DNA of 64,000 bases from Candidatus Moraniibacteriota bacterium (GCA_028695135.1 JAQVJM010000002.1:14249-78248); one strand, 5' to 3'; positions 18,989 through 32,962 are shown, counted from the stretch's first letter. The notes: generated from the letters alone by a model not told the origin. Program-made: numbers and translations.

Positions 18989-19000
18989 TTTATTCATATT

Positions 19001-19897
19001 TTACGGCTGTAAGATATCCTCGGTTCTTCCATCGATCGAAATCACGACATTTTCAACTGTCGGAAATTGTTTCAAGGTTTCGGTTATCTGGGCGCGGATG
19101 GCTGTCACTCGGCAGGATCCTCCGACAGCTCTTTCCAGCTGTTCATCAAAGTCGGCATAGGCGGTTCCGTTCTGGATGGTTATTTTTTGCAGTTTGACAT
19201 CCGGATTTATGGAGGTGAAATATCCCGAATCTTTTTCTTCCCGGGTCGGGCCGACCAAAAGTTCTTCTATGGCTCTTTTGCCGACTGCCTGGGTTCGAGT
19301 GATCGTTCTTTCCCGCGCATACATCTCAGAGCACAGGTCGACGTCGTTATCATTGCCGAAAAAAACTTTTACCGTCATTGTTTCTGTCGGAGCGAATCTT
19401 ATCGGAATCTCTAGCGAATCGTCGAGCTCGCGCATATCGGACGGATTATCTTTTTGAAAAATCAATTTTCCTTCTTGCGCTCCTCGGGAATCGAATTCCA
19501 GAAAGGCCGTGAAGGGGACGAATTCCTCGGTCATCCATTCTTCCTGGGCCGTGGCTATGGCGCTTCCCAGCTCCTGTCCGTTTTCGTTCAGGAGAATTAT
19601 AGGAAAGCTGGCTTCAAAATACCAAGTCCCGCGAGCTTCACCGGATATTTCCAAGGGACTGGATATTTCATCTCCGGCGGACAAGTCCTTGACCCGGATG
19701 AGATCATTTTTTTCTGTTTCAGAAGTCTCTTTCCCGATCTCTTTGCCTTCTTGATCTTCTTCAGAAACGGGAATCCGATCCGTTTCCGGCGGGATGCCGG
19801 AATCATTCTTATTTTTATTAAAAAAATAAAAAGCGAAAAATACCAGAAAAAGGACTGCCGTTGCGATGTAAAAAAGTTTTTTCGTATTTTCCGCCAT
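19001..19897 (-). CDS. GerMN-domain protein (LpqB/Gmad2-like), membrane-anchored
   Basis: N-terminal TM; C-terminal GTREEKDSGYFTSINPDVKLQKITIQNGTAYADFDEQL...GGSCRVTAIRAQITETLKQFPTVENVVISIDGRTEDILQP is typical of the GerMN domain. Confidence 0.6.
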   Translation of the reverse strand: MAENTKKLFYIATAVLFLVFFAFYFFNKNKNDSGIPPETDRIPVSEEDQEGKEIGKETSETEKNDLIRVKDLSAGDEISSPLEISGEARGTWYFEASFPIILLNENGQELGSAIATAQEEWMTEEFVPFTAFLEFDSRGAQEGKLIFQKDNPSDMRELDDSLEIPIRFAPTETMTVKVFFGNDNDVDLCSEMYARERTITRTQAVGKRAIEELLVGPTREEKDSGYFTSINPDVKLQKITIQNGTAYADFDEQLERAVGGSCRVTAIRAQITETLKQFPTVENVVISIDGRTEDILQP

Positions 19898-20083
19898 ATT
19901 TTTTTATTGAATCATATACTATTATAGCAGTAAATTATGGAAATAACCAACAAATATGTCGGACCGGTGCGGCATTAGATTTTTAAAGAAAAAAATGCTA
20001 TTATAAAGAAGGTCTTGGAGGCTTCTATAGAGGCCTCTATAGAAGCCTCTATTTTTAAAATCATTTTTTAAAATCGATATAGT

Positions 20084-20308
20084 ATGCTAATTTACGCATA
20101 TGCGCAAATTAGCATAATTATAAATTATGATATGAGAGCAGGCAACAAAAAAGCGGTCTGTAAGATAAAAAAATCAAGCGCATACAGCTATTCCATAACC
20201 ATTCCCAAAAAAATGATGGATAAATATGATTGGCGGGAAAAACAGAAAATGGTGATAGAAGACAAGGGCGGGGGAAAGTTGGAAATCAGGGATTGGCACA
20301 GCAGATAA
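20084..20308 (+). CDS. Small hypothetical protein
   Basis: 74-aa ORF followed by a 34-bp perfect palindrome and T-run; no family recognised. Confidence 0.3.
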   Translation: MLIYAYAQISIIINYDMRAGNKKAVCKIKKSSAYSYSITIPKKMMDKYDWREKQKMVIEDKGGGKLEIRDWHSR

Positions 20309-20326
20309 TCGGTCTCATAATTTTTT

Positions 20327-20360
20327 TCTACAGTATCGTTCGATCGAACGATACTGTAGA
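20327..20360. terminator. 34-bp perfect palindrome (17-bp stem) followed by a T-run, either a terminator or an operator
   Basis: TCTACAGTATCGTTCGA|TCGAACGATACTGTAGA then AATAAGTTTTTTT. Confidence 0.5.
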
Positions 20361-20377
20361 ATAAGTTTTTTTAGGGT

Positions 20378-20584
20378 ATGGAAGAAAGTGTATTGAATAA
20401 ACTTGAAAATCAAGAGAAAAAGATAGACGAAATATATAAGTCCGTAGAAAAAACCAGGAAATATTTTTTATGGACGCTGATAATTTCCGCGGGAGCGATC
20501 CTTATTCCGCTTGTCGGACTCATGATCATAGTTCCTTGGTTTTTGAAAGCGATAAGCTCCGCTTATTCCGGATTAGGGATATAG
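20378..20584 (+). CDS. Small membrane protein (hypothetical)
   Basis: 68 aa with one long hydrophobic segment. Confidence 0.3.
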   Translation: MEESVLNKLENQEKKIDEIYKSVEKTRKYFLWTLIISAGAILIPLVGLMIIVPWFLKAISSAYSGLGI

Positions 20585-20629
20585 CTGCGCATCCAAGAAA
20601 AAAATTTTTTATCTTTAAGTTTGTTCCTA

Positions 20630-20733
20630 TATGATGAGAATATATTATTTTATGAACCTGTAGGCAACCTAGCGCTTTTTTATTAGAATAAGGAGCATTC
20701 CTGGGGTTCATAAAATAATATATTCTCATCTCT
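20630..20733. repeat. Long perfect inverted repeat (28-bp arms, 46-nt spacer) forming a large hairpin, MITE-like or a structured RNA
   Basis: TATGATGAGAATATATTATTTTATGAACC ... GGTTCATAAAATAATATATTCTCATCTC. Confidence 0.6.
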
Positions 20734-20788
20734 TAAAATTATTTAAAATTCGAGCATCGTTGTAAGAATTACAAAATTAGTATATTCG

Positions 20789-20808
20789 CCTGCCTGCCGG
20801 CAGGCAGG
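20789..20808. repeat. GC-rich REP-like perfect palindrome CCTGCCTGCCGGCAGGCAGG (copy 1), nested in a longer AT-rich inverted repeat
   Basis: Exact 20-bp palindrome; identical copy at 22270-22289; related copies at 29197-29218 and 33196-33262. Confidence 0.7.
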
Positions 20809-20833
20809 TACAAATTTGTAATTTCGTAAAGAT

Positions 20834-21955
20834 ATGAAGATTGCCATTCAAGCGGCTGATCTGGACAACAACAGGATAGACGGGACGCGCGTCTATCTTT
20901 TAAATGTGCTTAAATATCTGGGAAAAATTTCCCCGGAAGATGATTTTTTTATTTATCATAAAAAGGAATTTAATCCGGAACTAGTTCCGCCAGAGTTTAC
21001 GAATTACGTAATCAAAAAAGTGTCATCTCCTTTCCTATGGACGCAGACAAGATTTGCTTGGGAGGTTTGGAAGGAAGGTGTCGATGTCTTGTGGATGCCG
21101 ATGCATAATGCGCCACTTTTTGGAAGCAAGAAAACAAAAAAGGTCGTAACGATCCACGATTTGGCTTTCAAGAGATTTTCTGAAGCTTTCACCAAGGGAG
21201 ACCTGTTCAAATTAAACCTGCTTACGGAGCTGGCGATAAAAAAAGCCGACAAAATTATCGCTGTTTCGCAGTCCACCAAAAGAGACATACTGGAATTTTA
21301 TCCGGAAATAAATCCAGAAGATATTAGAGTTATCTATCACGGATTTGACGCTGAATTATTTGAAAAAAGATATTCAGAAGAAAAGAGGAACAGCGTCCTA
21401 AAAAGCTATAAGTTAAAAGCTAAAAGCTACATTCTCTATGTCGGCGCGATCCAACCGAGAAAAAACTTGAAGACCCTAATAAGGGCTTTCGAATCGTTGA
21501 AGGGAAGCGGGGAAGCGGAAGATCTTAAATTGGTCATTTCCGGAAGCAAGGCTTGGCGCTGGGAAGACACGATCGAAGCGGTGGAAAAAAGCAGCCAGAG
21601 GGAAAACATAATTTTAACCGGTAGGGTTTCTTTTGAAGATCTTTCGATTATCTATAGGGGCGCGTCGGTTTTTGTTTTTCCTTCCCTGTATGAAGGTTTC
21701 GGCATTCCGGTTTTGGAAGCTTTTGCTTCGGGCGTTCCGGCCGTCGTTTCCAGAAATTCCAGCCTTGAGGAAGTGGGAGGGGAGGCGGTAGAATATTTCG
21801 ACGGATCGGATGCCGGAGACCTTTCGAAAAAAATAGGAAATATTTTGAAAAGCGATGAGATTCAAAGATCAATGGTTGAAAAAGGGAAAAAACGATTGAA
21901 AAATTTTTCTTGGGAGAAATGCGCGAGGGAGACTTTGGGTTTTTTGAAAAGTTAA
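20834..21955 (+). CDS. Glycosyltransferase family 4
   Basis: GT-B fold; C-terminal SLYEGFGIPVLEAFASGVPAVVS...EEVGGEAVEYFD (EX7E). Confidence 0.8.
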   Translation: MKIAIQAADLDNNRIDGTRVYLLNVLKYLGKISPEDDFFIYHKKEFNPELVPPEFTNYVIKKVSSPFLWTQTRFAWEVWKEGVDVLWMPMHNAPLFGSKKTKKVVTIHDLAFKRFSEAFTKGDLFKLNLLTELAIKKADKIIAVSQSTKRDILEFYPEINPEDIRVIYHGFDAELFEKRYSEEKRNSVLKSYKLKAKSYILYVGAIQPRKNLKTLIRAFESLKGSGEAEDLKLVISGSKAWRWEDTIEAVEKSSQRENIILTGRVSFEDLSIIYRGASVFVFPSLYEGFGIPVLEAFASGVPAVVSRNSSLEEVGGEAVEYFDGSDAGDLSKKIGNILKSDEIQRSMVEKGKKRLKNFSWEKCARETLGFLKS

Positions 21956-22008
21956 AAAGCGCTTCTCTTTCCCCGAAAGGGCTGAAGCGCAGTTCATTTA
22001 TATTCTCA

Positions 22009-22040
22009 AATATGCCCGTTTTCTTTCTCGCCAAAGAAAA
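22009..22040. terminator. Strong 13-bp hairpin downstream of the GT4 gene (putative terminator, weak T-run)
   Basis: GCCCGTTTTCTTT-ctcgcc-AAAGAAAACGGGC. Confidence 0.4.
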
Positions 22041-22059
22041 CGGGCAAAAAGAAACCGCA

Positions 22060-22200
22060 TCCTGACAACCTCGGCGATAAGATCAAGCTTCATTCTTTAA
22101 AATTTCATATTCCCCCGCTCGCCTAGGCGAGCGGGTCCATTTCACTGAAATTTTAAATCATTCAGCCTGATCTTATGACGCCTCGGTTGTCGCGGATGAA
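22060..22200. repeat. Long imperfect hairpin element centred on a CTCGCC-TAG-GCGAG stem and bounded by CCTCGG...CGCCTCGG repeats
   Basis: Arms GATAAGATCA/TGATCTTAT and TTAAAATTTCA/TGAAATTTTAA around CCCCGCTCGCCTAGGCGAGCGGG; ends with the CCTCGGTTGTCGCGGA motif. Confidence 0.5.
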
Positions 22201-22269
22201 TGATAATTAATTCGAGATTAAATTGTGCAAAAATCCGCCCGTCTGCACATGTCATTCTGAACGAATTGA

Positions 22270-22289
22270 ACCTGCCTGCCGGCAGGCAG
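22270..22289. repeat. REP-like palindrome CCTGCCTGCCGGCAGGCAGG (copy 2)
   Basis: Identical to 20789-20808; the two copies bracket the GT4 gene 20834-21955. Confidence 0.7.
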
Positions 22290-22352
22290 GAAATCTCTGT
22301 TTATTTAGATGAGATCATTCTCTGCGCCCAGGATGACATTTGAGAAATGTCA

Positions 22353-22453
22353 CTTCTTGACGCTCAAAAGCTAAAATTTGGAAACGCACTTGCGATGTGC
22401 GGAATGCAGCTGATCGTTCAGTCTAATTTTATTATACCTCGGTTGTCGCGGAC
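22353..22453. repeat. Intergenic repeat element (copy 1): TTCTTGACGCTCAAAAGCTAAAATTTGGAAACGCACTTGCGATGTGCGGA ... CCTCGGTTGTCGCGGA
   Basis: Near-identical copy at 62998-63100 downstream of another GT4 gene. Confidence 0.65.
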
Positions 22454-22477
22454 GGAGCGAAAGAATTTTATTTGTAT

Positions 22478-22855
22478 TTAATTGTCTATAAAAAGAACTT
22501 TAAAAAAGTAATAGATTATAAAAAGCGAAGTTGTCGTTATTATTATAATTTCTGACCAGTGAAATTTGATCAGAGAAAGGGAAATTATGATTATTCCAAA
22601 AATGGCGGCAATCGCGCAGTGCCATTTTTTTATCTTTAAATCGAATGATAAACCCAGAATTTTCCCTAGCGCAGACAGCATAACTATCAGAATCAAGGAG
22701 AATATAGCCAGCCTCAGAAAACTGAGATGGGCGGATATTAATCCGGGCAGGATGCTTTCGGCCAGAAGCGCCGCGGACCATACGAAAAAAGCAAGAAATA
22801 TTATGATTTCCAAAATTTTATAAATCAATAGTTTTTTATTTTTGTCCAGTTCCAT
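22478..22855 (-). CDS. Polytopic small membrane protein (hypothetical)
   Basis: 125 aa, 3-4 hydrophobic helices. Confidence 0.4.
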   Translation of the reverse strand: MELDKNKKLLIYKILEIIIFLAFFVWSAALLAESILPGLISAHLSFLRLAIFSLILIVMLSALGKILGLSFDLKIKKWHCAIAAIFGIIIISLSLIKFHWSEIIIITTTSLFIIYYFFKVLFIDN

Positions 22856-22955
22856 TTTTTTATGATTAAAATTTATAATCCGTCATGGCGGATCGGATCC
22901 TTCGAATATGCGGTTCAGGATATTTGAATATCATTTTTTGTAGATTCGTATTATA

Positions 22956-23900
22956 TCATAATTTTTCTCCCGTAAATCTCGCTCTTATTTTATTCTTGGT
23001 ATCGGCAAGGAAGAGAAAGAGGTTGCTTTTATTGGGCGTCTTTTTGAATTCCAAATCTATTTTTGCTATTTTTACACTTTTGGGAATGTCGGACAATTCG
23101 AAACGGTAATCCTTTCCGGAAAATCGCGATAATTTTTCTGCGGATATTGTGCAGGAATATCTCCTTTTAAAAAACGGATGCTGATCCGGATGGCAAACTT
23201 CTCCTATGGCCAAGCTTCCTTCCTGGACTGATATGTTATTTTTAAAATCTTTCACATAAGGATATTCGGAGAGATTTATCTTTTTCTTGAATCCGTTTTC
23301 TATCAGGTAATAGTTGTCCTTATCAGTATGAAGTATCGTTCCTTCAGGATGGGCGGACGAGATATTAAGAAGATCTTCTTTCTCATATTCGCTAAGGTCA
23401 ATCTCTCCTGTTTCTCTGTTTTCAAAAGCATATCCTAATCCGGTTAGAGTGAGAGGGTTGTCTATGGGGTTCTTTTGGCGGTTTCCCGCGATGAAATAAG
23501 ATTCCTCCGAGGCCACTAAGAGATTTTCTTGGATATCCGTTCCAAGGCTCTCCCGCAGTTCAGCTTCCGGGTAAAAGAATGACTTGTAGGATTTTTTTAC
23601 GTTTATTTGAGATACGGAAATCGGATCGGATTTTTTTTCCAAATTGATTGAAATATCTATTTTTGAAAAATCTTGCGGAGTAGAAGCAAAGAATGAAATG
23701 GAATTTTCCGATTGGGAAACGTCAGTCACAGTGTTTTTCAGGCTGTTCATATTCCTAAAAGACTGCATAAAATATTCCGAAGGGAAAAGAAGACGGTAAA
23801 AGAAGCAGAGGGAGCCTAAGATGAAAATTGTAAAAATAAAAAGAACGGAAATCCTAAAATTTTTTTTGTTTTTTTCATCCAGCTTGAGATTATTTTTCAT
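22956..23900 (-). CDS. Exported hypothetical protein with N-terminal TM anchor
   Basis: ISVLFIFTIFILGSLCFFY TM then soluble domain; directly downstream of (3 nt from) the big membrane protein gene. Confidence 0.4.
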   Translation of the reverse strand: MKNNLKLDEKNKKNFRISVLFIFTIFILGSLCFFYRLLFPSEYFMQSFRNMNSLKNTVTDVSQSENSISFFASTPQDFSKIDISINLEKKSDPISVSQINVKKSYKSFFYPEAELRESLGTDIQENLLVASEESYFIAGNRQKNPIDNPLTLTGLGYAFENRETGEIDLSEYEKEDLLNISSAHPEGTILHTDKDNYYLIENGFKKKINLSEYPYVKDFKNNISVQEGSLAIGEVCHPDQHPFFKRRYSCTISAEKLSRFSGKDYRFELSDIPKSVKIAKIDLEFKKTPNKSNLFLFLADTKNKIRARFTGEKL

Positions 23901-23903
23901 AGG

Positions 23904-25790
23904 CTATTTTTTTATTTCAAAAATTTCTCCCTTTACATGAATATTTTCTTTTTTAGGAAATGAAAAATCTTTTGGCGGATCGATAAGCGCATTGGTGACG
24001 AAGGAATAGGAATTGACGGATATAAGCTTGTCTCCTAGATAGCTTTCCTTGTAGTATTTTACATTGCTTTTGGGAGTTATCAAATATATTTTCTCATATT
24101 TTTGAGTATTGAGACGCTTCAAGTCATCGGGATTGAAAAAATAAACGGCATTTTTTTCAAAAAGGAAGTTCATAGGAGCGGCGATCATTTCTTGGCTGTT
24201 TCCCCCGGATTTTTGATCTACGAGAATCAGATCGTTCTCGGTGAAATTCTGGCTTATATTCCTGGTATCCTCCATGAGGTTCATTCCGGGGACATAAGAG
24301 AAAAAATAAATGGCGGCCGGGAGGTTAAGAATAATTATAAAAAGCAGGATAATTTTATAATAAAGCGCTTGTGCGGGTTTTTTGAAAAAAGCGCAGAGCA
24401 AAAGAGGGGAATATAATATCGCAGCCGGCAGGACGGCGAAGACGAATCTTCTCAGCATCCATGGATGGTCGGGGGTTATCTGTGGATTGAGTATATATAT
24501 GAAAGAGGGGAGAGCGATAAAAAAGGGAACAAGTTTTACGTAGTCTCTTTTTTTGAAAAAATATATTACGGAGACGAATCCCAAAAGAAGGGGCGCCAAT
24601 ATTCCGTAAAGCGCAAAGATTTTAAAAAGGTTGAGAGAGGAGATGGCGTAATCGCCGGTAATCTTTGCGGCGTTTCCGGAAAAATCTTTTGCCAAAGCTT
24701 TAATGATAGCTTTGTAAAAATAAACATCCGCGACCAAATTCCAAGCGAAGAAAAAGACGAGCAATGCAATAGCCGGTAAAATGATCTTTAGGAAATTTAT
24801 TCTAAAATATCTAGCAGTGTTTTTGTGGAGAAGAAGGATAAAAATCATTGCTACAAAGAAGGCCAAACCTTCAATCCGAGTAAAGACCAACAATCCGAAA
24901 CTCATAAATAAAACAAGCAACGTTATCGCATTTTTGTAAAAGCTTTCTACTTTTGATCCGGTCAGATAAATCATCTGAAGAATTCCTATCCAAAGGAGGG
25001 CCAGTGCCATATTTTCCGTGAGAGTGAATTTGGCAAACCAGAAAAAGGAAAAGGATGTGGCGACAATAGACAAGGTTGCAATTGATGCAAAAAGAGCCTC
25101 TTTTTTCCCGAGGGGTTTTGCGAGACTGAAAGAAATCAAAAATATGGATAGGAGAAAAATATAAAGGAGAATGGCGTTGGCGATTATGAATCCGGCCAGA
25201 CCCAAAAAGGAATAAAAAAATGAAAGCCATGATATGTAGACTAAGGGAAATTGGGTAGATAGATTTCCATCCGGTGTGTAAAAAAATCCGGGAAAATTCA
25301 GCGCTTTTCCGGAAGCATCGGCGTGGCAGTAAAATCCATCCAGTTTTTCTTTCAAGGAGCGGTTATCTTTTTCAGTCAGGCCTTTTTCTTTGATACAGCC
25401 GGCCATTTTGTCCCGGGGCGCGGAATTTATCTCAAAAAAATCTCGGGATACCGGATTGGAAAATTCCAGCTGATTGTTCTGTGAGAGCCTGATGGCGGCT
25501 TCGCTTATGGATCCCTGGTCGCGTCCGGAAAAGACAGTCGGATTTACATAGACAGAAAAAGCGGTGACAATTATAAATAAGCTTAAGTTGACGATTACGA
25601 AAGTCCGGGATGATTTTAGGAGAGGTTTCAAGAAAAACCTTATTCCCAGAGCTACTACAAGCGCTATAAACAAGACAAGGATCCACCAGTAAAAAGCGCC
25701 CAATAGGGTGATAATAAAAGCCAGCCATCCGAGAGCCAGCCAGAAAAGTAAAAATATATTAAAAGATTCAAAGTCATTTTTGTTTAGCAT
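23904..25790 (-). CDS. Large polytopic membrane protein (~14 TM), possible GT-C/ArnT-like glycosyltransferase or related
   Basis: Multiple TM helices across 500 aa then a C-terminal soluble domain; the architecture resembles 12173-14212. Confidence 0.45.
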   Translation of the reverse strand: MLNKNDFESFNIFLLFWLALGWLAFIITLLGAFYWWILVLFIALVVALGIRFFLKPLLKSSRTFVIVNLSLFIIVTAFSVYVNPTVFSGRDQGSISEAAIRLSQNNQLEFSNPVSRDFFEINSAPRDKMAGCIKEKGLTEKDNRSLKEKLDGFYCHADASGKALNFPGFFYTPDGNLSTQFPLVYISWLSFFYSFLGLAGFIIANAILLYIFLLSIFLISFSLAKPLGKKEALFASIATLSIVATSFSFFWFAKFTLTENMALALLWIGILQMIYLTGSKVESFYKNAITLLVLFMSFGLLVFTRIEGLAFFVAMIFILLLHKNTARYFRINFLKIILPAIALLVFFFAWNLVADVYFYKAIIKALAKDFSGNAAKITGDYAISSLNLFKIFALYGILAPLLLGFVSVIYFFKKRDYVKLVPFFIALPSFIYILNPQITPDHPWMLRRFVFAVLPAAILYSPLLLCAFFKKPAQALYYKIILLFIIILNLPAAIYFFSYVPGMNLMEDTRNISQNFTENDLILVDQKSGGNSQEMIAAPMNFLFEKNAVYFFNPDDLKRLNTQKYEKIYLITPKSNVKYYKESYLGDKLISVNSYSFVTNALIDPPKDFSFPKKENIHVKGEIFEIKK

Positions 25791-25887
25791 ACTTAAACTA
25801 TAAACGCAAAATCTTCGGTTGACAAGGTTGCCGGGTTTTGTAAATCAGGCTAATATTAGGGAAGGCGAGCATTTTTAATCATTTTTT

Positions 25888-26262
25888 ATGTCTATAAGAT
25901 TTTACATCTGGGGCCTTGTGTTTAGCACGATCCTATCTCTGGCGGCGTGGGTCTTTGTCATCTTCTATATCGATCCGGAAGAAGCGGGAGTATTCGGGAA
26001 ATTTTTCTTCTTTGCCAGCTTGTTTCTTTTCCTTTCCGGGCTGTTTGTGACTTTTCTGGTATGGCTCAGAATGAAATTTATGGGCGAAGAAGTCGCGGCG
26101 GAAACTATCGGGCTTAGCTCAAGGCAGGGAATTCTCTCGGCTTTATTTTTTACTGCAGTTATTGTTTTATTCGGATCCGGATACCTGGTTTGGTGGAACG
26201 CCCTTTTGGTTTTGGCGGGAATATTGTTGGTTGAATTTTATTTCTTGAGCCGGGATAAATAG
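25888..26262 (+). CDS. Four-TM small membrane protein (hypothetical)
   Basis: Hydrophobicity pattern. Confidence 0.4.
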   Translation: MSIRFYIWGLVFSTILSLAAWVFVIFYIDPEEAGVFGKFFFFASLFLFLSGLFVTFLVWLRMKFMGEEVAAETIGLSSRQGILSALFFTAVIVLFGSGYLVWWNALLVLAGILLVEFYFLSRDK

Positions 26263-26353
26263 ATTTGACTTAGGGCATAAAGGATGCAAGAATAAGTCAA
26301 CCAAAAATGGTTGTTTTTTAGTTTTTTTGAAAATTTACATAAGGAGAAGAAAA

Positions 26354-26545
26354 ATGGAGATTAAAAAATTCAAAAAGAACGGACTGAATGTTATTAAGAT
26401 CTACGGAACGATGGCCGGGAAACTCAGATATCCTATTACATTGATCGATACTCCGGGCGCAATTATAATCGATATCGAGAAGCCGGAGCTGCTAAGCATC
26501 AAGGGCTATAGGATCGTTAAGGAAGAGAATATTTCTTCACGTTGA
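26354..26545 (+). CDS. Small hypothetical protein upstream of thyX
   Basis: AGGAG RBS 6 nt upstream of the ATG at 26354 (MEIKKFKKNG...); the ORF track begins at 26327. Confidence 0.3.
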   Translation: MEIKKFKKNGLNVIKIYGTMAGKLRYPITLIDTPGAIIIDIEKPELLSIKGYRIVKEENISSR

Positions 26546-26677
26546 TGCTGCGGCAGAAATGCGCGCAAAGATATTCTTTGAGATAAAGACTGCTCCGGAA
26601 AGTTTTAAAAGAACCTGATGACCAAGGCGAGGTTTTTGGGTAGTGATAAAATTCAAATATGAGGAGGAAAGCGGATT

Positions 26678-27661
26678 ATGAAAAAATATTACAAACCTAA
26701 GGTTGTTTCTCCTTCTTTTGAGATAGTTCCCGATGATATCGGCTTGGCCGTAAGGATAGAGTTTACCGGCCGGGTTTGCTACAAGAGCGAGGACAGGATA
26801 AGTGCCGACTCTTCAGCCGGATTTTGCCGGGGAATGGTAAATCACAAACACAATTCCGTTCTCGAAATGGGCGTGCGCACCTGTGAGGTGAAAGCCAGGA
26901 CTAAGTCGCATATGCGCGAGATAATCATGGCTATGCCGAAGTATCTTTTTATCGATGATTTTCCTTTTGAAAAAAGGACTCTGATAACCGGAAGCGTGCG
27001 CGCTTTCCGGGAAATGCTGATGAGACTTCCTGGAAATGAGATAATAAGGACGATTGCTTTTGACATGAATAAAAATCATCCTTATTTTTTTGAGGATATA
27101 GCATCTTTGCTTCCGGTGAAAAGATCAAGAAAGATTTCTTGTCGGCAAGTTTCCCTAGAGGAAATCGATCAGATGGAACCGGAAATCCAGGCTCGCCATC
27201 GACATTTGGCGGTCAAGTTTATCGTCAGTCGCGCGGTGACTCATGAAATCGTCCGGCATCGCCCTTGCTCTTTTCTGCAAGAGAGCCAGCGATATTGTTG
27301 CTATAGCGATGGAAAATTCGGTTCTCGCATTACTTTCATCAAACCTGTATTTTTCAAAGAGGACAGCGAGGATTATGAGATATGGGGGAAAGAATGTTTA
27401 TCAGCCGAGGCCGTCTATATGAAGTTGATAAAAAACAATTCCCCCCAGGCGGCTCGCACGGTTCTTCCAAATTCCTGTAAGACGGAAATATTTGTCTATG
27501 CGAATCTGGCAGAGTGGCATCATATTCTTCATATGCGCACAAGCAAGGCTGCCGAGCCTTCAATGCGGGAAGTTATGATCCCCCTGCAAAAAGAACTTAT
27601 GAAAAGATTTCCCGAACAGAATTTTGGAGAGCCTCTCCGGATGCCGGAGGGCTATGTGTAG
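26678..27661 (+). CDS. thyX: Flavin-dependent thymidylate synthase ThyX (with N-terminal extension)
   Basis: Signature EIVRHRPCSFLQESQRY (RHR-X7-S...QRY) plus LPNSCKTEIFVYANLAEWHHILHMRTS C-terminal ThyX region. Confidence 0.85.
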   Translation: MKKYYKPKVVSPSFEIVPDDIGLAVRIEFTGRVCYKSEDRISADSSAGFCRGMVNHKHNSVLEMGVRTCEVKARTKSHMREIIMAMPKYLFIDDFPFEKRTLITGSVRAFREMLMRLPGNEIIRTIAFDMNKNHPYFFEDIASLLPVKRSRKISCRQVSLEEIDQMEPEIQARHRHLAVKFIVSRAVTHEIVRHRPCSFLQESQRYCCYSDGKFGSRITFIKPVFFKEDSEDYEIWGKECLSAEAVYMKLIKNNSPQAARTVLPNSCKTEIFVYANLAEWHHILHMRTSKAAEPSMREVMIPLQKELMKRFPEQNFGEPLRMPEGYV

Positions 27662-27776
27662 AAAAAAAACAATGAGGAATTTATCCGCTTATGCTAGAAG
27701 GGCATAAGCGGCCTTTTATTTTTACAAGCTGATGTGGTAAAATAAAATACGGTGTCTTTTAAATTTTAATGAGATA

Positions 27777-29141
27777 ATGATGAATAATGAAAAAAATAAT
27801 CACGTGATCAGAGATTTGGACAACGGCGGGTTCGTCTTGGTTCTGAATAACGGAGCCGAGATCGACGGGCAGGCGGAAGCCATGCTCCAAGCGCTCCATT
27901 CGCGTTCCACCGGGGGAATAAAAAGCCATCTGAAAATATTGGAAGAGAAGGGCGCGGAGGATTTTATGGAAAAGTTTTATGTGGGCTACGGGCATAAATC
28001 CATAGGAGATTGCGGCAGCGCGACCGTTTTTGTGGAAGGAATATCGATGCTGGCCGCCAAAGCCATTCAGGACTGGCGGCTTTATTCGGGGCAGGAAGCT
28101 TCGACCAGATACGTTGATTTTTCCAAGCAGAAATTCTTGGATCCCACCGGCAAGGAAGAAGGAAAAGAAGTTTTGGAGAATTGGAGGAAATTTTATCTTA
28201 AAGCCCAAGAGCCCGTAAGAAAACATCTAAAAAAACAATTTCCGAAGGGAAAGGAAGAAGATATAAATATATATGAAAAAGCGATTAAGGCGAGAGCCTT
28301 TGATATTACCAGATCATTTCTCCCGGCCGGAGCGACTACCAATGTAGCCTGGAGGATGAATTTTCGCCAGTTTGCCGATGAGCTGATGCTTCTCAGACAT
28401 CATCCGCTTAAAGAGGTTCGGGATATTGCCGAGAAAACCGAAGAAGCTCTCAAGGAAATGTACCCCAGTTCTTTCGGGCACGAAAGATTTGCGCATACCG
28501 AAGAATACAATAAAAAATGGATGCGAGATAAATATTATTATAAGAATGAAAGTGCCGGAGACTTCGAATTGATTTACGATAATGTTGATAGGAAAATGCT
28601 TTCCGAATATGGAGAAGTTTTGAAATCAAGACCTATGAAGACGGAGTTGCCTGCGGCAATCGGAGAGTGCGGGACAGTAGCTTTTGAATTTTTATTGGAT
28701 TTCGGGTCTTTCAGGGACTTCCAGAGACATCGCGCAATCGTACAAAGGATGCCTCTCTTAGTGATGATCCACGGATTCAATGAGTGGTATTTGGACGCTT
28801 TGCCGGAAAATTTAAGAGAAAAGGCTGAAAAATTCATCAAAGAGCAGGAAAGAAAAATTGAAAAGATCGATGCTTCTGAAACAGACAAGCAATATTTCAT
28901 GGCGATGGGGTATCGGGTTCCATGCAGGTTTTCAGGAGATTTAAAAGCGCTGGTTTATCTGACTGAACTCCGATCGACCCGATTCGTCCATCCGACATTA
29001 GTTGAACAGATACTTAAAATGATCAATAATATGAAGGAATTATTTGAAAAAGACGGGTTGGTATTCCACCTAGACGAGGAGCCGAACAGGTTTGACGTAA
29101 GAAGAGGGGAGCAAGACATAATTGAAAAACATAAATCATAA
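27777..29141 (+). CDS. Tandem-duplicated ThyX-like protein (two ThyX-fold halves fused). Half 1 retains S-x-Q-E-x-S-x-RY but lacks RHR; half 2 retains RHR but lacks the Ser/RY part
   Basis: Half 1: GFVLVLNNGAEIDGQAEAMLQALHSRS...GHKSIGDCGSATVFVEGISMLAAKAIQDWRLYSGQEASTRY...RSFLPAGATTNVAWRMNFRQFADELMLLR. Half 2: GSFRDFQRHRAIVQRMP...MAMGYRVPCRFSGDLKALVYLTELRSTRF. Confidence 0.7.
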   Translation: MMNNEKNNHVIRDLDNGGFVLVLNNGAEIDGQAEAMLQALHSRSTGGIKSHLKILEEKGAEDFMEKFYVGYGHKSIGDCGSATVFVEGISMLAAKAIQDWRLYSGQEASTRYVDFSKQKFLDPTGKEEGKEVLENWRKFYLKAQEPVRKHLKKQFPKGKEEDINIYEKAIKARAFDITRSFLPAGATTNVAWRMNFRQFADELMLLRHHPLKEVRDIAEKTEEALKEMYPSSFGHERFAHTEEYNKKWMRDKYYYKNESAGDFELIYDNVDRKMLSEYGEVLKSRPMKTELPAAIGECGTVAFEFLLDFGSFRDFQRHRAIVQRMPLLVMIHGFNEWYLDALPENLREKAEKFIKEQERKIEKIDASETDKQYFMAMGYRVPCRFSGDLKALVYLTELRSTRFVHPTLVEQILKMINNMKELFEKDGLVFHLDEEPNRFDVRRGEQDIIEKHKS

Positions 29142-29179
29142 TGTAGCAGGTATTAATCATTAAGTGGTATAATATAACA

Positions 29180-29809
29180 ATGGAAGGGGAAAATATCCTG
29201 CCTGCCGGCAGTCAGGGAAAATTCATAGTTTTTGAAGGATTGGACGGATCGGGACAGAGCACGCAGATAAGTTTTTTGGAGAAATATCTGAGGGACAAGG
29301 GGGAAAAATTTCACACCACTTCTGAGCCTTCCGGCAGCCTGATCGGCGGATTGATCAGGTCGGTTCTTGCCAAGCAATGGACGCTGAGCAATACCGGAAT
29401 ACAGCTGCTTTATGCTGCTGACAGGGCGCATCATTTGGAATCAGAAGTCCGGCCGGCTTTGGAGAAAGGCAATCACGTCATTTCCAGCCGTTATTATTTT
29501 TCCACTTTTGCTTTTGGATCTCTGGAAAATGACGTGGAATGGCTGGAAAAGATAAACGAGAAGTTTCGTGCTCCGGATATAACCATCTATATAAAAGTTT
29601 CACCGGAAGAATGCATCAGGAGAATAGAGGATTCCAGATTTCGCCGAGAGCTTTTTGAAGAAAAGGAAAAATTGGAAGAAGTTTCTAAGATGTATGACAA
29701 AATTTATACTAGCGGAAAGTATGATAATTTTCACGTTGTAGACGGGGAGAGGTCAGTCGAGGAAGTTTTTAAAGACGTGATCGGAATAATCGATAAATAT
29801 ATAGATTAA
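29180..29809 (+). CDS. tmk: Thymidylate kinase
   Basis: FIVFEGLDGSGQSTQ P-loop, DRAHHLE, lid region; N-terminal ~12 codons contain a copy of the REP-like palindrome. Confidence 0.85.
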   Translation: MEGENILPAGSQGKFIVFEGLDGSGQSTQISFLEKYLRDKGEKFHTTSEPSGSLIGGLIRSVLAKQWTLSNTGIQLLYAADRAHHLESEVRPALEKGNHVISSRYYFSTFAFGSLENDVEWLEKINEKFRAPDITIYIKVSPEECIRRIEDSRFRRELFEEKEKLEEVSKMYDKIYTSGKYDNFHVVDGERSVEEVFKDVIGIIDKYID

Positions 29810-29824
29810 GATATATATAAAAAT

Positions 29825-30154
29825 ATGGATTTCAAAGAATACCAGGAAAAGTCGAGAAAGACCGCCCTCTATCCGGACAAGGATAATAATTTTATTTATC
29901 CCACTTTGGGACTCTCCGGAGAGGCCGGGGAAGTTTCTGAAAAGATAAAAAAAGTCATCCGGGATAAGGAGGGAAAAATTGACGAGGAAACTCGGGAAAT
30001 GATAAAGAAGGAATTGGGGGATGTGCTTTGGTATGTCGCGCAGTTGGCGACGGAGCTGGGATTGGATATGGACGAAGTCGCCGGGAGCAATATCGAGAAG
30101 CTATATAGCCGTCTGGAGAGGGGAAAGATCGGAGGAAGCGGTGATGACAGATAA
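29825..30154 (+). CDS. MazG-like all-alpha NTP pyrophosphohydrolase
   Basis: LGLSGEAGEVSEKIKK...ELGDVLWYVAQLATELGLDMDEV (EExxE/D metal motifs of the MazG/HisE superfamily), 109 aa. Confidence 0.7.
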   Translation: MDFKEYQEKSRKTALYPDKDNNFIYPTLGLSGEAGEVSEKIKKVIRDKEGKIDEETREMIKKELGDVLWYVAQLATELGLDMDEVAGSNIEKLYSRLERGKIGGSGDDR

Positions 30155-30182
30155 AAACAATAGCAGTAATCAAAAATATATA

Positions 30183-30210
30183 TTTTACCATATTACGTAA
30201 TATGGTAAAA
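30183..30210. promoter_or_regulatory. 28-bp perfect palindrome immediately upstream of gatB (candidate operator)
   Basis: TTTTACCATATTAC|GTAATATGGTAAAA, 30 nt upstream of the gatB ATG. Confidence 0.4.
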
Positions 30211-30241
30211 TGAGTATGATGGAGTTATAGCGGGAAAAATT

Positions 30242-31765
30242 ATGAGCAAATATAGCGCTACAATCGGGATGGAAATACATGTTGAGCTCAAGACCGAGTC
30301 CAAGATGTTTTGCAAATGCAAGAACGGGATGGGGGCGGAAAAGGAGCCGAATAAGAATATCTGCGAAGTTTGCACCGCTCATCCGGGGACTCTTCCTGTG
30401 CCTAATGAAAAAGCCGTTAGATTTGTCCAACTTGCAGGAATGGCGCTCAATTGTGAATTGCGAAAGGAGTCGAAATTTGACAGAAAGAATTATTTTTATC
30501 CGGATATTCCGAAGGGTTATCAGATTTCCCAGTACGACCAACCTCTATGCCAAAACGGAGTTTTGGAAATTCGAAATTCAAAATCCGAAATCCTAAACAA
30601 TAATCAAATTCAAAATTCAAATATTCAAACTAAAAAGATAGGTATTACTAGGATTCATCTTGAAGAAGATACCGGTAAGCTAACTCATCCCAAAGGAACT
30701 GGCTATTCTTTAGTAGACTTTAACCGTGCCGGTGTTCCGCTTATGGAGCTTGTGACCGAACCGGATTTTGAGAGCGGGGAGGAGGCCAGAATATTTTGCC
30801 AGAAGCTCCAGCAGATCTGCCGCTATATCGGCATAAGCGATGCCGATATGGAAAAAGGGCATATGCGTTGCGAGGCCAACATTTCTCTTCATAAAGAAGG
30901 CGAGGATAAGTTGAGCGGGACAAAAGTCGAAGTCAAGAATATAAATTCATTCAAATTTGTAGAAAAAGCGATCAATTACGAGATAGAGCGCCAGGCGGAA
31001 GCTTTGGACAAAGGCGAAAAAATTGTCCAGGAAACCAGAGGCTGGGATGCGAATCGGAACGCGACGATTTCTCAGCGAACCAAGGAGACCGCGGCCGATT
31101 ACAGATATTTCCCCGAGCCGGATATCCCGCCGATGAAATTCAGTGATGGCTATATTGAAAAATTAAAAAGGAATCTTCCCGAGCTTCCGGATCAAAAAAT
31201 CAAGAGATTCATGGAACAATATGGGATTTCCCAGGAAAATGCGGAGCTTCTTACGATGGAAAAGGGCTTGGCTGATTATTTTGAAAAAACCATAAGCGAG
31301 ATAGCAGAGAAAAGAGATGCGGGAGAAATTAAGGCCGAGGAAGAGAAGCTGATAAAGCTGGTTGCAAATTATATAAATACTGAATTGAGAAAGTATCTTT
31401 TTGAAAGCCAGGAAAAGATAGAAAGCATCAAAATTACTCCGGAAAATTACGCTGAGCTCATCGGAATTGTGGCGGATGGAAAAATTAATTCCAGCGCCGC
31501 CCAGACAGTTCTCAAAGAGATGTATGAAACCGGAGGGGATCCGTCCCAAATTATTGAAGAAAAGAATTTGGCGCAAATGGAAGATGATGGAGAAATGGAA
31601 AATATTATTGATAAAATCTTAGTGGATAACCAGTCTTCTGTTGATGATTACAAGTCAGGAAAAGAAAATGCTTTGAAGTTCTTGATGGGGCAAGTTATGA
31701 AAGAGACACAAGGAAAAGCCAATCCGCAAAAGGCGATGGAGATGATAAGGGAAAAATTGAAATAG
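30242..31765 (+). CDS. gatB: Asp/Glu-tRNA amidotransferase subunit B, with a ~20-aa low-complexity in-frame insertion
   Basis: YSATIGMEIHVELKTESKMFCKC, IGITRIHLEEDTGKL, C-terminal GatB/YqeY domain; insertion NSKSEILNNNQIQNSNIQT encoded by 30565-30630. Confidence 0.9.
   Translation: MSKYSATIGMEIHVELKTESKMFCKCKNGMGAEKEPNKNICEVCTAHPGTLPVPNEKAVRFVQLAGMALNCELRKESKFDRKNYFYPDIPKGYQISQYDQPLCQNGVLEIRNSKSEILNNNQIQNSNIQTKKIGITRIHLEEDTGKLTHPKGTGYSLVDFNRAGVPLMELVTEPDFESGEEARIFCQKLQQICRYIGISDADMEKGHMRCEANISLHKEGEDKLSGTKVEVKNINSFKFVEKAINYEIERQAEALDKGEKIVQETRGWDANRNATISQRTKETAADYRYFPEPDIPPMKFSDGYIEKLKRNLPELPDQKIKRFMEQYGISQENAELLTMEKGLADYFEKTISEIAEKRDAGEIKAEEEKLIKLVANYINTELRKYLFESQEKIESIKITPENYAELIGIVADGKINSSAAQTVLKEMYETGGDPSQIIEEKNLAQMEDDGEMENIIDKILVDNQSSVDDYKSGKENALKFLMGQVMKETQGKANPQKAMEMIREKLK
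30565..30630 (+). repeat. Copy of the AT-rich rRNA IVS repeat family embedded in frame in gatB
   Basis: AAAATCCGAAATCCTAAACAAT is 22/22 identical to 23S IVS1 (35898-35919); continued similarity (CAAATTCAAAATTCAAATATT) to IVS3. Confidence 0.7.
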
Positions 31766-31875
31766 GCGCTTGATATGATTTATTTGATCCTCTATCTATA
31801 TTTTCTATAAAAAAATCCCACTTCGCCGGCTAGCGGATAAGCGGGTTTATCGGTCTGCACGATACTATAATCTTT

Positions 31876-32112
31876 TTACATAAAATGCTTTCTTATGAAT
31901 GCCCTGCCCGAACCTGATTTTAGATATTTTTCGAATTCAAAAGCTTTGTATTTACCAGAAAAAGATGTATAGCACATCAATTTCACTGGCAATCTACCCT
32001 TAGTTGAATCAATATATCCCTTTCCATGTCTTTCAATCCTATCTTTCAAATCATTAGTACAACCTGTGTATAGATTGCCATCAGAACATACTAATATGTA
32101 AACATAGAACAT
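31876..32112 (-). CDS. GIY-YIG nuclease-domain small protein (UPF0213/YhbQ-like)
   Basis: MFYVYILVCSDGNLYTGCTNDLKDRIERHGKG...GRLPVKLMCYTSF; start moved to the internal ATG because the upstream part of the ORF overlaps tRNA-Ser. Confidence 0.7.
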   Translation of the reverse strand: MFYVYILVCSDGNLYTGCTNDLKDRIERHGKGYIDSTKGRLPVKLMCYTSFSGKYKAFEFEKYLKSGSGRAFIRKHFM

Positions 32113-32124
32113 ATGCGAATCTCT

Positions 32125-32185
32125 CCTTCGCGGCGAACCACTGGCGGACTTGTCCGCCGTAGCTCGCCGTTTCGGCGAGCGAAGG
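32125..32185 (-). ncRNA. GC-rich multi-hairpin structured element in the tRNA-Ser trailer/GIY-YIG leader (tRNA-like three-way junction)
   Basis: On the minus strand: CCTTCGC [CTCGCC-GAAA-CGGCGAG] CTAC [GGCGGA-CAAG-TCCGCC] AGTGGTTCGCC GCGAAGG; ~70% GC in an AT-rich genome. Confidence 0.4.
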
Positions 32186-32272
32186 CGGAGAGAGAGGGAT
32201 TCGAACCCCCGGTACCCTTTCGGGCACAACGGTTTTCAAGACCGTCGCATTCGACCACTCTGCCATCTCTCC
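32186..32272 (-). tRNA. tRNA-Ser (anticodon UGA), class II with long variable arm
   Basis: Minus-strand GGAGAGA TG GCAG AGTGGTCGAAT GC.. ACGGT CTTGAAA ACCGT TGTGCCCGAAAGGGTACC GGGGG TTCGAAT CCCTC TCTCTCC G. Confidence 0.8.
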
Positions 32273-32395
32273 AAAAATCTTTTACATTTTTATTTCAGAG
32301 ATTACTATAACAGTTGCCGGCCTGTTTGTAAACCGCTTATCTTTTGTCTGCATAATTTTAATGTGCTATAATTAATAAAATTTAAATTTCATATT

Positions 32396-32962
32396 ATGAA
32401 TATCGACTTACGGAGAAGCGGGCATAAAAAAAACAATATCCGCATAAATCATGAAGGGGATTATCTCGAAAAACCCCATGATTTTATGATTTCTGAGCAT
32501 AGCGACGTGCTTATCGAATGGCAGGGTCCGGAATATGAGCATTATCCCAAGGAAAAAGTCTGGTATTTAGTGGCTTCGCTTATTTTGGCGGCGATAGTAT
32601 TTTACGCGCTCATAAACAATAGTCCCATCATGGCGATACTTTTCATCCTGATAGGGATAGTGGGCTATATCCAACTGGAAAAGCATCCCCGAGTTCTAGA
32701 TTTCAAAATTACTCATGAAGGAGTCATGGCAGGAAATGAATTGTATGATTTTGACAGCGTAGAATCTTTTTGGATTTTTTATGAGCCGCCCCATACGAAG
32801 ATTTTAAGCCTTCATACGGACGCTCTCCTCGTTCCTTATGTCCATATACCGGTTCACCAGATCGATCCTGTAAAATTAAGGGAGGTCTTGATGGATTTCA
32901 TTCCGGAAAAGAAGCAAAAACCTACGATGATAGACACGATAGAGAGACTTTTGCATATATAG
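32396..32962 (+). CDS. Two-TM membrane protein (hypothetical)
   Basis: Hydrophobic helices VWYLVASLILAAIVFYALI and IMAILFILIGIVGYI. Confidence 0.4.
   Translation: MNIDLRRSGHKKNNIRINHEGDYLEKPHDFMISEHSDVLIEWQGPEYEHYPKEKVWYLVASLILAAIVFYALINNSPIMAILFILIGIVGYIQLEKHPRVLDFKITHEGVMAGNELYDFDSVESFWIFYEPPHTKILSLHTDALLVPYVHIPVHQIDPVKLREVLMDFIPEKKQKPTMIDTIERLLHI

Follow-up and report, generated by a model that had tools for sequence, protein, structure and literature searches.

A stretch of 64,000 nucleotides from a Candidatus Moraniibacteriota bacterium (GCA_028695135.1 JAQVJM010000002.1:14249-78248; the whole stretch is called the window here) carries a gene for a single-domain ThyX, the flavin-dependent thymidylate synthase (FDTS), and directly downstream of it, on the same strand, a gene for a 454-residue protein in which two ThyX-like halves are joined. 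This raises the question of what the fused protein does, and whether it is an enzyme in its own right, a partner of its neighbor or a decaying duplicate. A preliminary description of the locus, made from the DNA sequence, had read it as a tandem ThyX fusion with complementary motif losses, and had suggested that it either regulates ThyX or carries out an altered pyrimidine chemistry. The fusion with complementary losses is borne out and is consistent with composite active sites. Our analysis favors, with a probability of about 0.72, a fused pseudo-heterodimeric flavin-dependent thymidylate synthase, in which the roles of the active site are divided between the two halves and which is the standard enzyme of Patescibacteria, with the single-domain gene (thyX327) being a separately transcribed, laterally acquired second enzyme and not a partner. 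Our confidence is higher for thymidylate synthase activity of the fused protein than for its exact assembly with two sites.

All four open reading frames (ORFs) of the preliminary description are present. The fused gene is laid out as follows, with positions counted from the first letter of the window.

27777..29141, + strand: fused two-domain ThyX, 454 residues, identified by profile and structure evidence
27777..28490, + strand: N half, residues 1-238 of the fused ThyX, which keeps the substrate-loop and flavin adenine dinucleotide (FAD)-phosphate roles
28071..28112, + strand: N-half motif D99-W-R-L-Y-S-G-Q-E-A-S109-T-R111-Y112, with RHR gone and S-x-R-Y retained
28491..29141, + strand: C half, residues 239-454 of the fused ThyX, which keeps the RHR and R174 roles
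28713..28733, + strand: C-half motif R313-D-F-Q-R317-H318-R319, with the S-x-R loop after the motif deleted
28971..28991, + strand: C-half R399...H405, where R399 is the equivalent of the uracil-activating Thermotoga maritima R174 and Mycobacterium tuberculosis R199

The N half is recognized by Pfam, with residues 44-230 matching Thy1 at E = 1e-21 when the whole protein was scanned and at 1e-20 when the N half was scanned alone. The isolated C half (residues 239-454) gave no Thy1 match in the Pfam scan, and profile-profile comparison and structure prediction were therefore required for it. In hhalign comparisons with a profile of canonical ThyX, anchored on T. maritima TM0449 (whose sequence is identical to that of PDB 1kq4/1o26), the probability of a match was 94% for the N half (E = 9e-8) and 92% for the C half (E = 7e-7). 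For the whole protein, the AlphaFold2 (AF2) model was computed from 100 diverse homologues; it has a predicted local distance difference test score (pLDDT) of 95.9 and a predicted template modeling score (pTM) of 0.92, and its best Foldseek matches in the PDB are all ThyX. Modeled separately, the C half reached a pLDDT of 94.6 and gave 153 PDB matches at E <= 1e-3, with all 50 among the matches listed being ThyX (PBCV-1 and T. maritima); these AF2 models are of monomers. Both halves are therefore shown to have the ThyX fold by profile and by structure, as had been proposed, and the possibility that the second protein has some other fold falls away. The two halves are not recognizably alike by sequence, and their direct comparison with hhalign gave a weak 51-column match (E = 0.012).

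In M. tuberculosis ThyX, each active site draws on three subunits. Subunit A supplies the RHR triad (residues 95-97), which contacts the FAD phosphates, the isoalloxazine and the substrate deoxyuridine monophosphate (dUMP), along with R199, which contacts dUMP (PMC6514825 section 3.1); subunit B supplies S71 and R190 to the FAD phosphates, and subunit C contributes S105, R107 and the lid residue Y108 (PMC6514825). In an inhibitor structure of the PBCV-1 enzyme, Q75 and R182 come from monomer A and S88 and Q89 from monomer B (PMC3498832), and S88, R90, Y91 and R174 of T. maritima ThyX are catalytically important (PMC8316439).

The conservation of the corresponding residues was counted over 100 members of the family with 34-79% identity to the window protein. 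The A-role residues (RHR, R174 and R74) lie in the C half, where R317, R319, R399 and R313 are each conserved in 100% of the members and H318 in 88%. The same positions of the N half hold D (77%), a variable residue and P (57%) in place of RHR, and R207, the R174 equivalent, is kept in 33%. The residues of the other two roles are found in the N half, namely the FAD-phosphate Ser and Arg of the B role (S75 100%, R197 81%) and the S-x-R-Y loop and E86 of the C role (S109 100%, R111 100%, Y112 98%, E107 98%), whereas in the C half the B-role positions are gapped and not conserved and the loop of the C role is deleted, T. maritima S88-Y91 falling opposite a gap in the hhalign alignment. The N half keeps the serine of the GHxS motif, which is deleted in the C half, and mostly also the R165-equivalent arginine, and two further residues are kept by the N half only, H73 (T. 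maritima H53, 96%) and R179 (T. maritima R147, 91%). In the C half, D314 and H405 are also conserved in 100% of the members.

The N-half motif was read from HMMER alignments to the ThyX proteins of Corynebacterium glutamicum and M. tuberculosis, the latter pairing S75 with S71, R197 with R190, S109 with S105, R111 with R107 and Y112 with Y108. The Arg of the N-half "DWR" is poorly kept across the family (P 57%, R 8%), and therefore the N half has lost RHR entirely. Hence the first half keeps the S-x-Q-E-x-S-x-R-Y part without RHR (D99-W-R...S109-T-R111-Y112) and the second keeps RHR (R317-H-R319) without the serine/RY part, just as the preliminary description had it, and the fusion is not a simple tandem of two fully conserved copies. 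The motif RHRx7SxR(Y) is found within neither single domain and is complete only when both halves are summed, but the full residue set for one composite site (RHR, R174, S88, R90, Y91 and the FAD-phosphate Ser and Arg) is then present and 81-100% conserved.

These observations suggest how the protein might work. The C half carries only A-role residues and the N half only B- and C-role residues, and two fused chains would pair into a pseudo-tetramer with two complete sites, each formed by one C half and both N halves, and two dead ones. The number of exactly two live and two dead sites would follow from D2 symmetry, because a site needs one A-competent and two B/C-competent domains. The substrate dUMP would be supplied from deoxycytidine monophosphate (dCMP) or triphosphate (dCTP) by a deaminase that is encoded next to the fused gene in many related loci; no deaminase gene was found in this 64-kb window. 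The small MazG protein, judging from its family, may take deoxyuridine triphosphate (dUTP) or dCTP to the monophosphate. The fused dimer would then methylate dUMP to deoxythymidine monophosphate (dTMP) at the two composite sites with FAD and methylenetetrahydrofolate (CH2-THF), and Tmk would phosphorylate the product, while thyX327 would provide a second, conventional route to dTMP.

The distribution of the fused gene is that of a core enzyme. A total of 3956 homologues were found at E <= 1e-3, of which the closest are 73-83% identical proteins of about 450 residues from Candidatus Moranbacteria that are labeled "FAD-dependent thymidylate synthase", and those with E < 1e-30 form 492 clusters at 50% identity. 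The fusion is present in at least 579 GTDB species genomes, and all the records that name a phylum-level lineage are Patescibacteria, from many different classes. The lineages include Moraniibacteriota, Paceibacterota, Kaiser-, Uhr-, Magasanik-, Komeili-, Nomura-, Dojka- and Buchananbacteria, as well as Absconditabacterales. Nine of the loci (L008, L010, L014, L028, L031, L040, L042, L054 and L072) belong to GTDB records titled Bdellovibrionales, Gammaproteobacteria or Burkholderiales; they are typical Patescibacteria fused-ThyX loci, 54-79% identical to the window protein, and the titles may be wrong. Two members, P0327 (L091:762-2243) and P0383, are high in guanine plus cytosine (GC) and apparently come from outside Patescibacteria. 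P0327 has RQR for RHR in its C half, as do about 12% of the family members, and its gene neighborhood was examined and proved uninformative.

We called ORFs in 85 related loci and searched them with the window proteins and with neighbor proteins from relatives. The fused gene usually has as neighbors tmk, MazG and gatB, together with genes for AAA_17/18 nucleotide kinases and for a deaminase, either of dCMP or, in the DCD family, of dCTP. All of these but gatB adjoin it in most of the 85 loci, with tmk lying within a few kb, which is the context expected for synthesis of dTMP and deoxythymidine triphosphate (dTTP). The small MazG gene after tmk is conserved in many relatives, and gatB is in the same position in L001-L008, L088 and L089. 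In Moranbacteria, the cluster of the fused gene comes after secE-nusG-rplK-rplA. No thyX327-like or canonical thyX was found within 8 kb of the fused gene in any of the 85 related loci (0/85), so that the fusion is not conserved beside thyX in related genomes. On a Campbellbacteria contig, a 334-residue relative of ThyX327 adjoins tmk right after secE-nusG-rplK, and the fused gene is absent from the locus. Because this single-domain thyX fills a like position without the fused gene, the fused and the long single-domain ThyX look positionally interchangeable. At the level of the locus, Patescibacteria appear to use the fused ThyX as their ordinary thymidylate synthase. A 2025 study placed dTMP synthesis within the minimal Patescibacteria repertoire and reported that thymidylate synthase genes were laterally acquired (PMC12455944).

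In the window, the downstream part of the cluster consists of the following genes.

29180..29809, + strand: tmk, dTMP kinase (TIGR00041 157.7 bits against a cut-off of 83.25; Pfam Thymidylate_kin 7.5e-44)
29825..30154, + strand: MazG-family nucleoside triphosphate (NTP) pyrophosphohydrolase, 109 residues (Pfam MazG 5.8e-13, 49.4 bits against a gathering score of 22)
30242..31765, + strand: gatB, the downstream neighbor, given for context only (Pfam GatB_N 2e-116)

Both tmk and mazG, which had been described as following the fusion, pass their family cut-offs (TIGR00041 and Pfam MazG), and the 109-residue protein has weak PDB matches to MazG-like proteins of 100-114 residues (5ie9, 2q73 and 2q5z). 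Beyond gatB the - strand (window 31876-32272) carries a tRNA-Ser(TGA) at 32184-32272 and, after it, a short ORF that begins with a GIY-YIG-like N terminus (MFYVYILVCSDGNLYTGCTNDLKDRIERH...); the true start of this ORF is probably an internal Met because the listed 117-residue ORF overlaps the tRNA. The Moranbacteria clusters also contain a conserved 262-residue protein that belongs to no Pfam family and lies between the nucleotide kinases and the dCMP/dCTP deaminase (L001:3973-4761, also in L002-L004 and L006); it is absent from this window.

The single-domain gene has a different history. It lies within a segment that is laid out as follows.

26321..27731, no strand assigned: lineage-specific segment (small ORF, thyX327 and terminator), whose counterpart is absent from L088, the closest syntenic relative
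26678..27661, + strand: thyX327, long-type single-domain ThyX, 327 residues (Pfam Thy1 E = 5e-35)
27685..27711, + strand: terminator-like hairpin directly 3' of thyX327 (11-bp stem, 6 GC pairs, T-run)
27721..27748, + strand: promoter-like site TTTACA-16-TAAAAT upstream of the fused gene (10/12 consensus match)

The single domain of ThyX327 holds all the canonical residues (R193-H194-R195, S203-x-R205-Y206, R260 and R287). It is thus the canonical ThyX that had been called at 26678-27661, with a complete motif in a protein of the long type, which has about 100 residues more than a minimal 220-residue ThyX, and it scores 88.2 bits on TIGR02170, barely over the cut-off of 87.9. Its nearest relatives are a few scattered Patescibacteria with 63-68% identity (five clusters among the matches listed), followed by Desulfobulbaceae and cable bacteria with 55-58% identity. 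The GC content is unremarkable (0.45 for thyX327 vs 0.43 for the fused gene). When window positions 19000-32500 were compared by blastn with L088, whose fused protein is 82% identical, the two aligned on both flanks (20426-26320 and 27732-29135), but the slot that matches window 26321-27731 is in L088 a 1020-bp gap holding a gene for a 237-residue BtpA-family protein. A tblastn search of the variable slot of the window found no BtpA remnant. The hairpin at 27685-27711 is the top-listed terminator-like site of the region 25700-32000 and has the longest stem, and the promoter-like site at 27721-27748 sits where synteny with L088 resumes, both sites being consensus matches and not proof of function. 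Because of the break in synteny with L088, the intergenic terminator- and promoter-like sites and the patchy relatives, we read thyX327 as a recent local insertion, and the gene was probably acquired horizontally. The presence of the two ThyX types next to each other is unusual, being seen in none of the 85 other loci, and lateral acquisition is its simplest explanation.

Some other features of the segment and of tmk can be mentioned here. Upstream of thyX327 and inside the lineage-specific segment, a 72-residue ORF at window 26327-26545 shows no likeness to the BtpA of L088. The DNA alignment to L088 fails over the tmk segment (29136-29813) though both flanks align, and the window Tmk is 60% identical to that of L010 and 25-32% identical to the Tmk of other relatives, L088 included, so that the tmk slot, too, seems to have been replaced or to be evolving very fast. 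A joint arrival of tmk and thyX327 as a tmk-thyX module of the kind seen in L086 and L087 was considered and rejected, as identity between the window Tmk and the Tmk proteins of those loci is only 25-32%. In L087, a Patescibacteria contig (L087:153-3839, GCA_018821685.1), the order is tmk, thyX (337 residues, a relative of thyX327), a 478-residue protein and NUDIX. The 478-residue protein is an unusual ThyA fusion, with a ThyA-family domain (PF00303) and a pterin-binding DUF4346, so that three potential thymidylate-related enzymes stand there in a row.

Several points weigh against a divided-site thymidylate synthase. H318 is replaced by Gln in 12% of the members (e.g., RQR in P0327), the invariant residues S42, R43, D176, D314, Y338, H405 and R443 fall outside the assigned roles, and the mapping of the C-half residues relies on one hhalign alignment and on motif identity. 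In addition, the fused protein scores 49.6 bits on TIGR02170, below the equivalog cut-off of 87.9, and our literature search turned up no biochemistry on any fused-ThyX member. The invariant residues would be accounted for if the degenerate sites of a half-of-sites enzyme now served another purpose, such as the allosteric binding of nucleotides or the docking of a partner, with thyX327 and the fusion serving different conditions or substrates; we consider this conceivable but doubtful. The same unexplained family-specific residues, the score below the TIGR02170 cut-off and the full-length homologues encoded by jumbo Vibrio phages and by Microcystis phage Ma-LMM01 could also be taken to mean that the fused protein is a ThyX-derived enzyme with another substrate or product (e.g., UMP (uridine monophosphate) or dCMP methylation, or hydroxymethylation) within a modification module, leaving the synthesis of dTMP to thyX327 or another enzyme, all the more as ThyX paralogues can neofunctionalize, like PolB, which acts on UMP. 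However, the residues that bind and activate uracil or dUMP (R399, S109, R111 and Y112, the equivalents of R174, S88, R90 and Y91) are 98-100% conserved, the neighbors include a dCMP or dCTP deaminase, a source of deoxyuridine nucleotides, and tmk, whose product uses up dTMP, most relatives have no other thymidylate synthase nearby, and a duplicated ThyX has been reported as the only thymidylate synthase of cultivated Chloroflexi. The altered pyrimidine chemistry suggested earlier is therefore unlikely, and the supposed nucleotide-modification module finds no support in the conserved neighbors, which make up an ordinary dTTP-synthesis cluster.

A non-catalytic or regulatory role, in which the fused protein would join mixed assemblies with the adjacent single-domain ThyX, was prompted by the adjacency of the two genes on one strand, and hetero-oligomers are conceivable because ThyX sites are formed between subunits. 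Yet in none of the 85 related loci does a canonical thyX lie within 8 kb of the fused gene, L088 has BtpA in the slot of thyX327, the terminator-like hairpin and the promoter-like site separate the two genes, and conservation of the fusion's catalytic residues is 98-100% over 100 diverse members, all of which makes the regulatory partner of the preliminary description highly improbable. A pseudoenzyme, with all four sites dead and the duplicate in decay, we regard as equally far-fetched. In its favor, the ThyX motif is incomplete in both halves, but the proteins are 73-83% identical among Moranbacteria with catalytic residues that are invariant across 34-79% identity, the losses are exactly complementary with respect to the three-subunit architecture of the site rather than random, and the position in the operon is stable.

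The fused architecture as such is already known: thousands of genomes have it under the annotation FAD-dependent thymidylate synthase, and it was remarked on in 2009 and is unstudied. For this reason the locus is a further case of a known, unstudied subfamily. Its interest lies partly in the enzyme itself. ThyX, an antibacterial target, has a three-subunit active site that has proved hard to dissect. In the fusion the subunit roles are naturally separated on two domains, which offers an asymmetric system, ready for use, in which residues can be assigned to roles, and makes it possible to ask if two sites per four domains are enough for a cell to grow. The reading of the locus is corrected as well, in that the long, low-scoring protein appears to be the core Patescibacteria enzyme and the textbook-like thyX the newcomer. 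This matters for metabolic reconstruction, where the lineage could be scored as lacking dTMP synthesis if an equivalog model misses the fused form.

Among known systems, the canonical homotetrameric ThyX/FDTS (T. maritima TM0449, M. tuberculosis Rv2754c and PBCV-1 A674R; PF02511, TIGR02170) is the obvious reference. It has the same fold as both halves of the fusion, the same catalytic residue set as the two halves summed, the same genomic tie to tmk and to the supply of deoxyuridine nucleotides, and presumably the same FAD- and CH2-THF-dependent chemistry. The fusion differs in having two domains per chain, with the A role and the B/C roles on different domains, and two rather than four sites would be expected per four domains.

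Closer in architecture are proteins from phages. ORF269 of Vibrio phage BONAISHI (L090:4902-6344) is 34% identical to the fusion over 93% of its length and has the same split motifs (QDFVFYNGQECSTRY; WRDLQRHR; ELRS...HP), and the BFVD model A0A6B7EUB9 matches the whole fold of the fusion with a template modeling (TM) score of 0.89. The gp020 protein of Microcystis phage Ma-LMM01, annotated as ThyX, is more distant (19% identity, TM 0.70) and has the same two-domain shape. Unlike the fused gene of the window, these phage tandem ThyX-like genes (BONAISHI, the vB_VmeM-Yong phages and Ma-LMM01) stand among hypothetical phage genes and not in a tmk/deaminase operon. PolB, a ThyX paralogue that methylates UMP in polyoxin biosynthesis, resembles the fusion in being a ThyX-fold paralogue that coexists with another ThyX, but it has a single domain and belongs to an antibiotic gene cluster, and nothing at this locus resembles one. 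The chlamydial ThyX is also long, at about 530 residues. Sequence identity between it and other ThyX proteins is absent (PMC6171736), and a search for a chlamydial link with the 521-residue fused-family member P0308 returned only Patescibacteria names, Absconditabacterales included.

Valas and Bourne (2009, PMC3224940) described an uncharacterized, domain-duplicated ThyX and gave it as the sole thymidylate synthase of most Chloroflexi, which would be like the situation proposed here for Patescibacteria. By that description, which comes without sequence analysis, it resembles the fusion in having two ThyX domains per polypeptide. This remark was all that our search of the literature on fused, tandem or duplicated ThyX found, and no account of a split between A-role and B/C-role domains or of a two-site pseudo-tetramer was found in the searchable literature. 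Leduc et al. (PNAS, 2004; cited in PMC5954106) reportedly observed that inactive ThyX mutants complement each other between subunits, which is the same principle, namely that subunits defective in different residues can in principle form a working site. In that case the mixture consisted of engineered mutants of one gene, whereas in the fusion complementary defects have been fixed by evolution in two domains of one chain.

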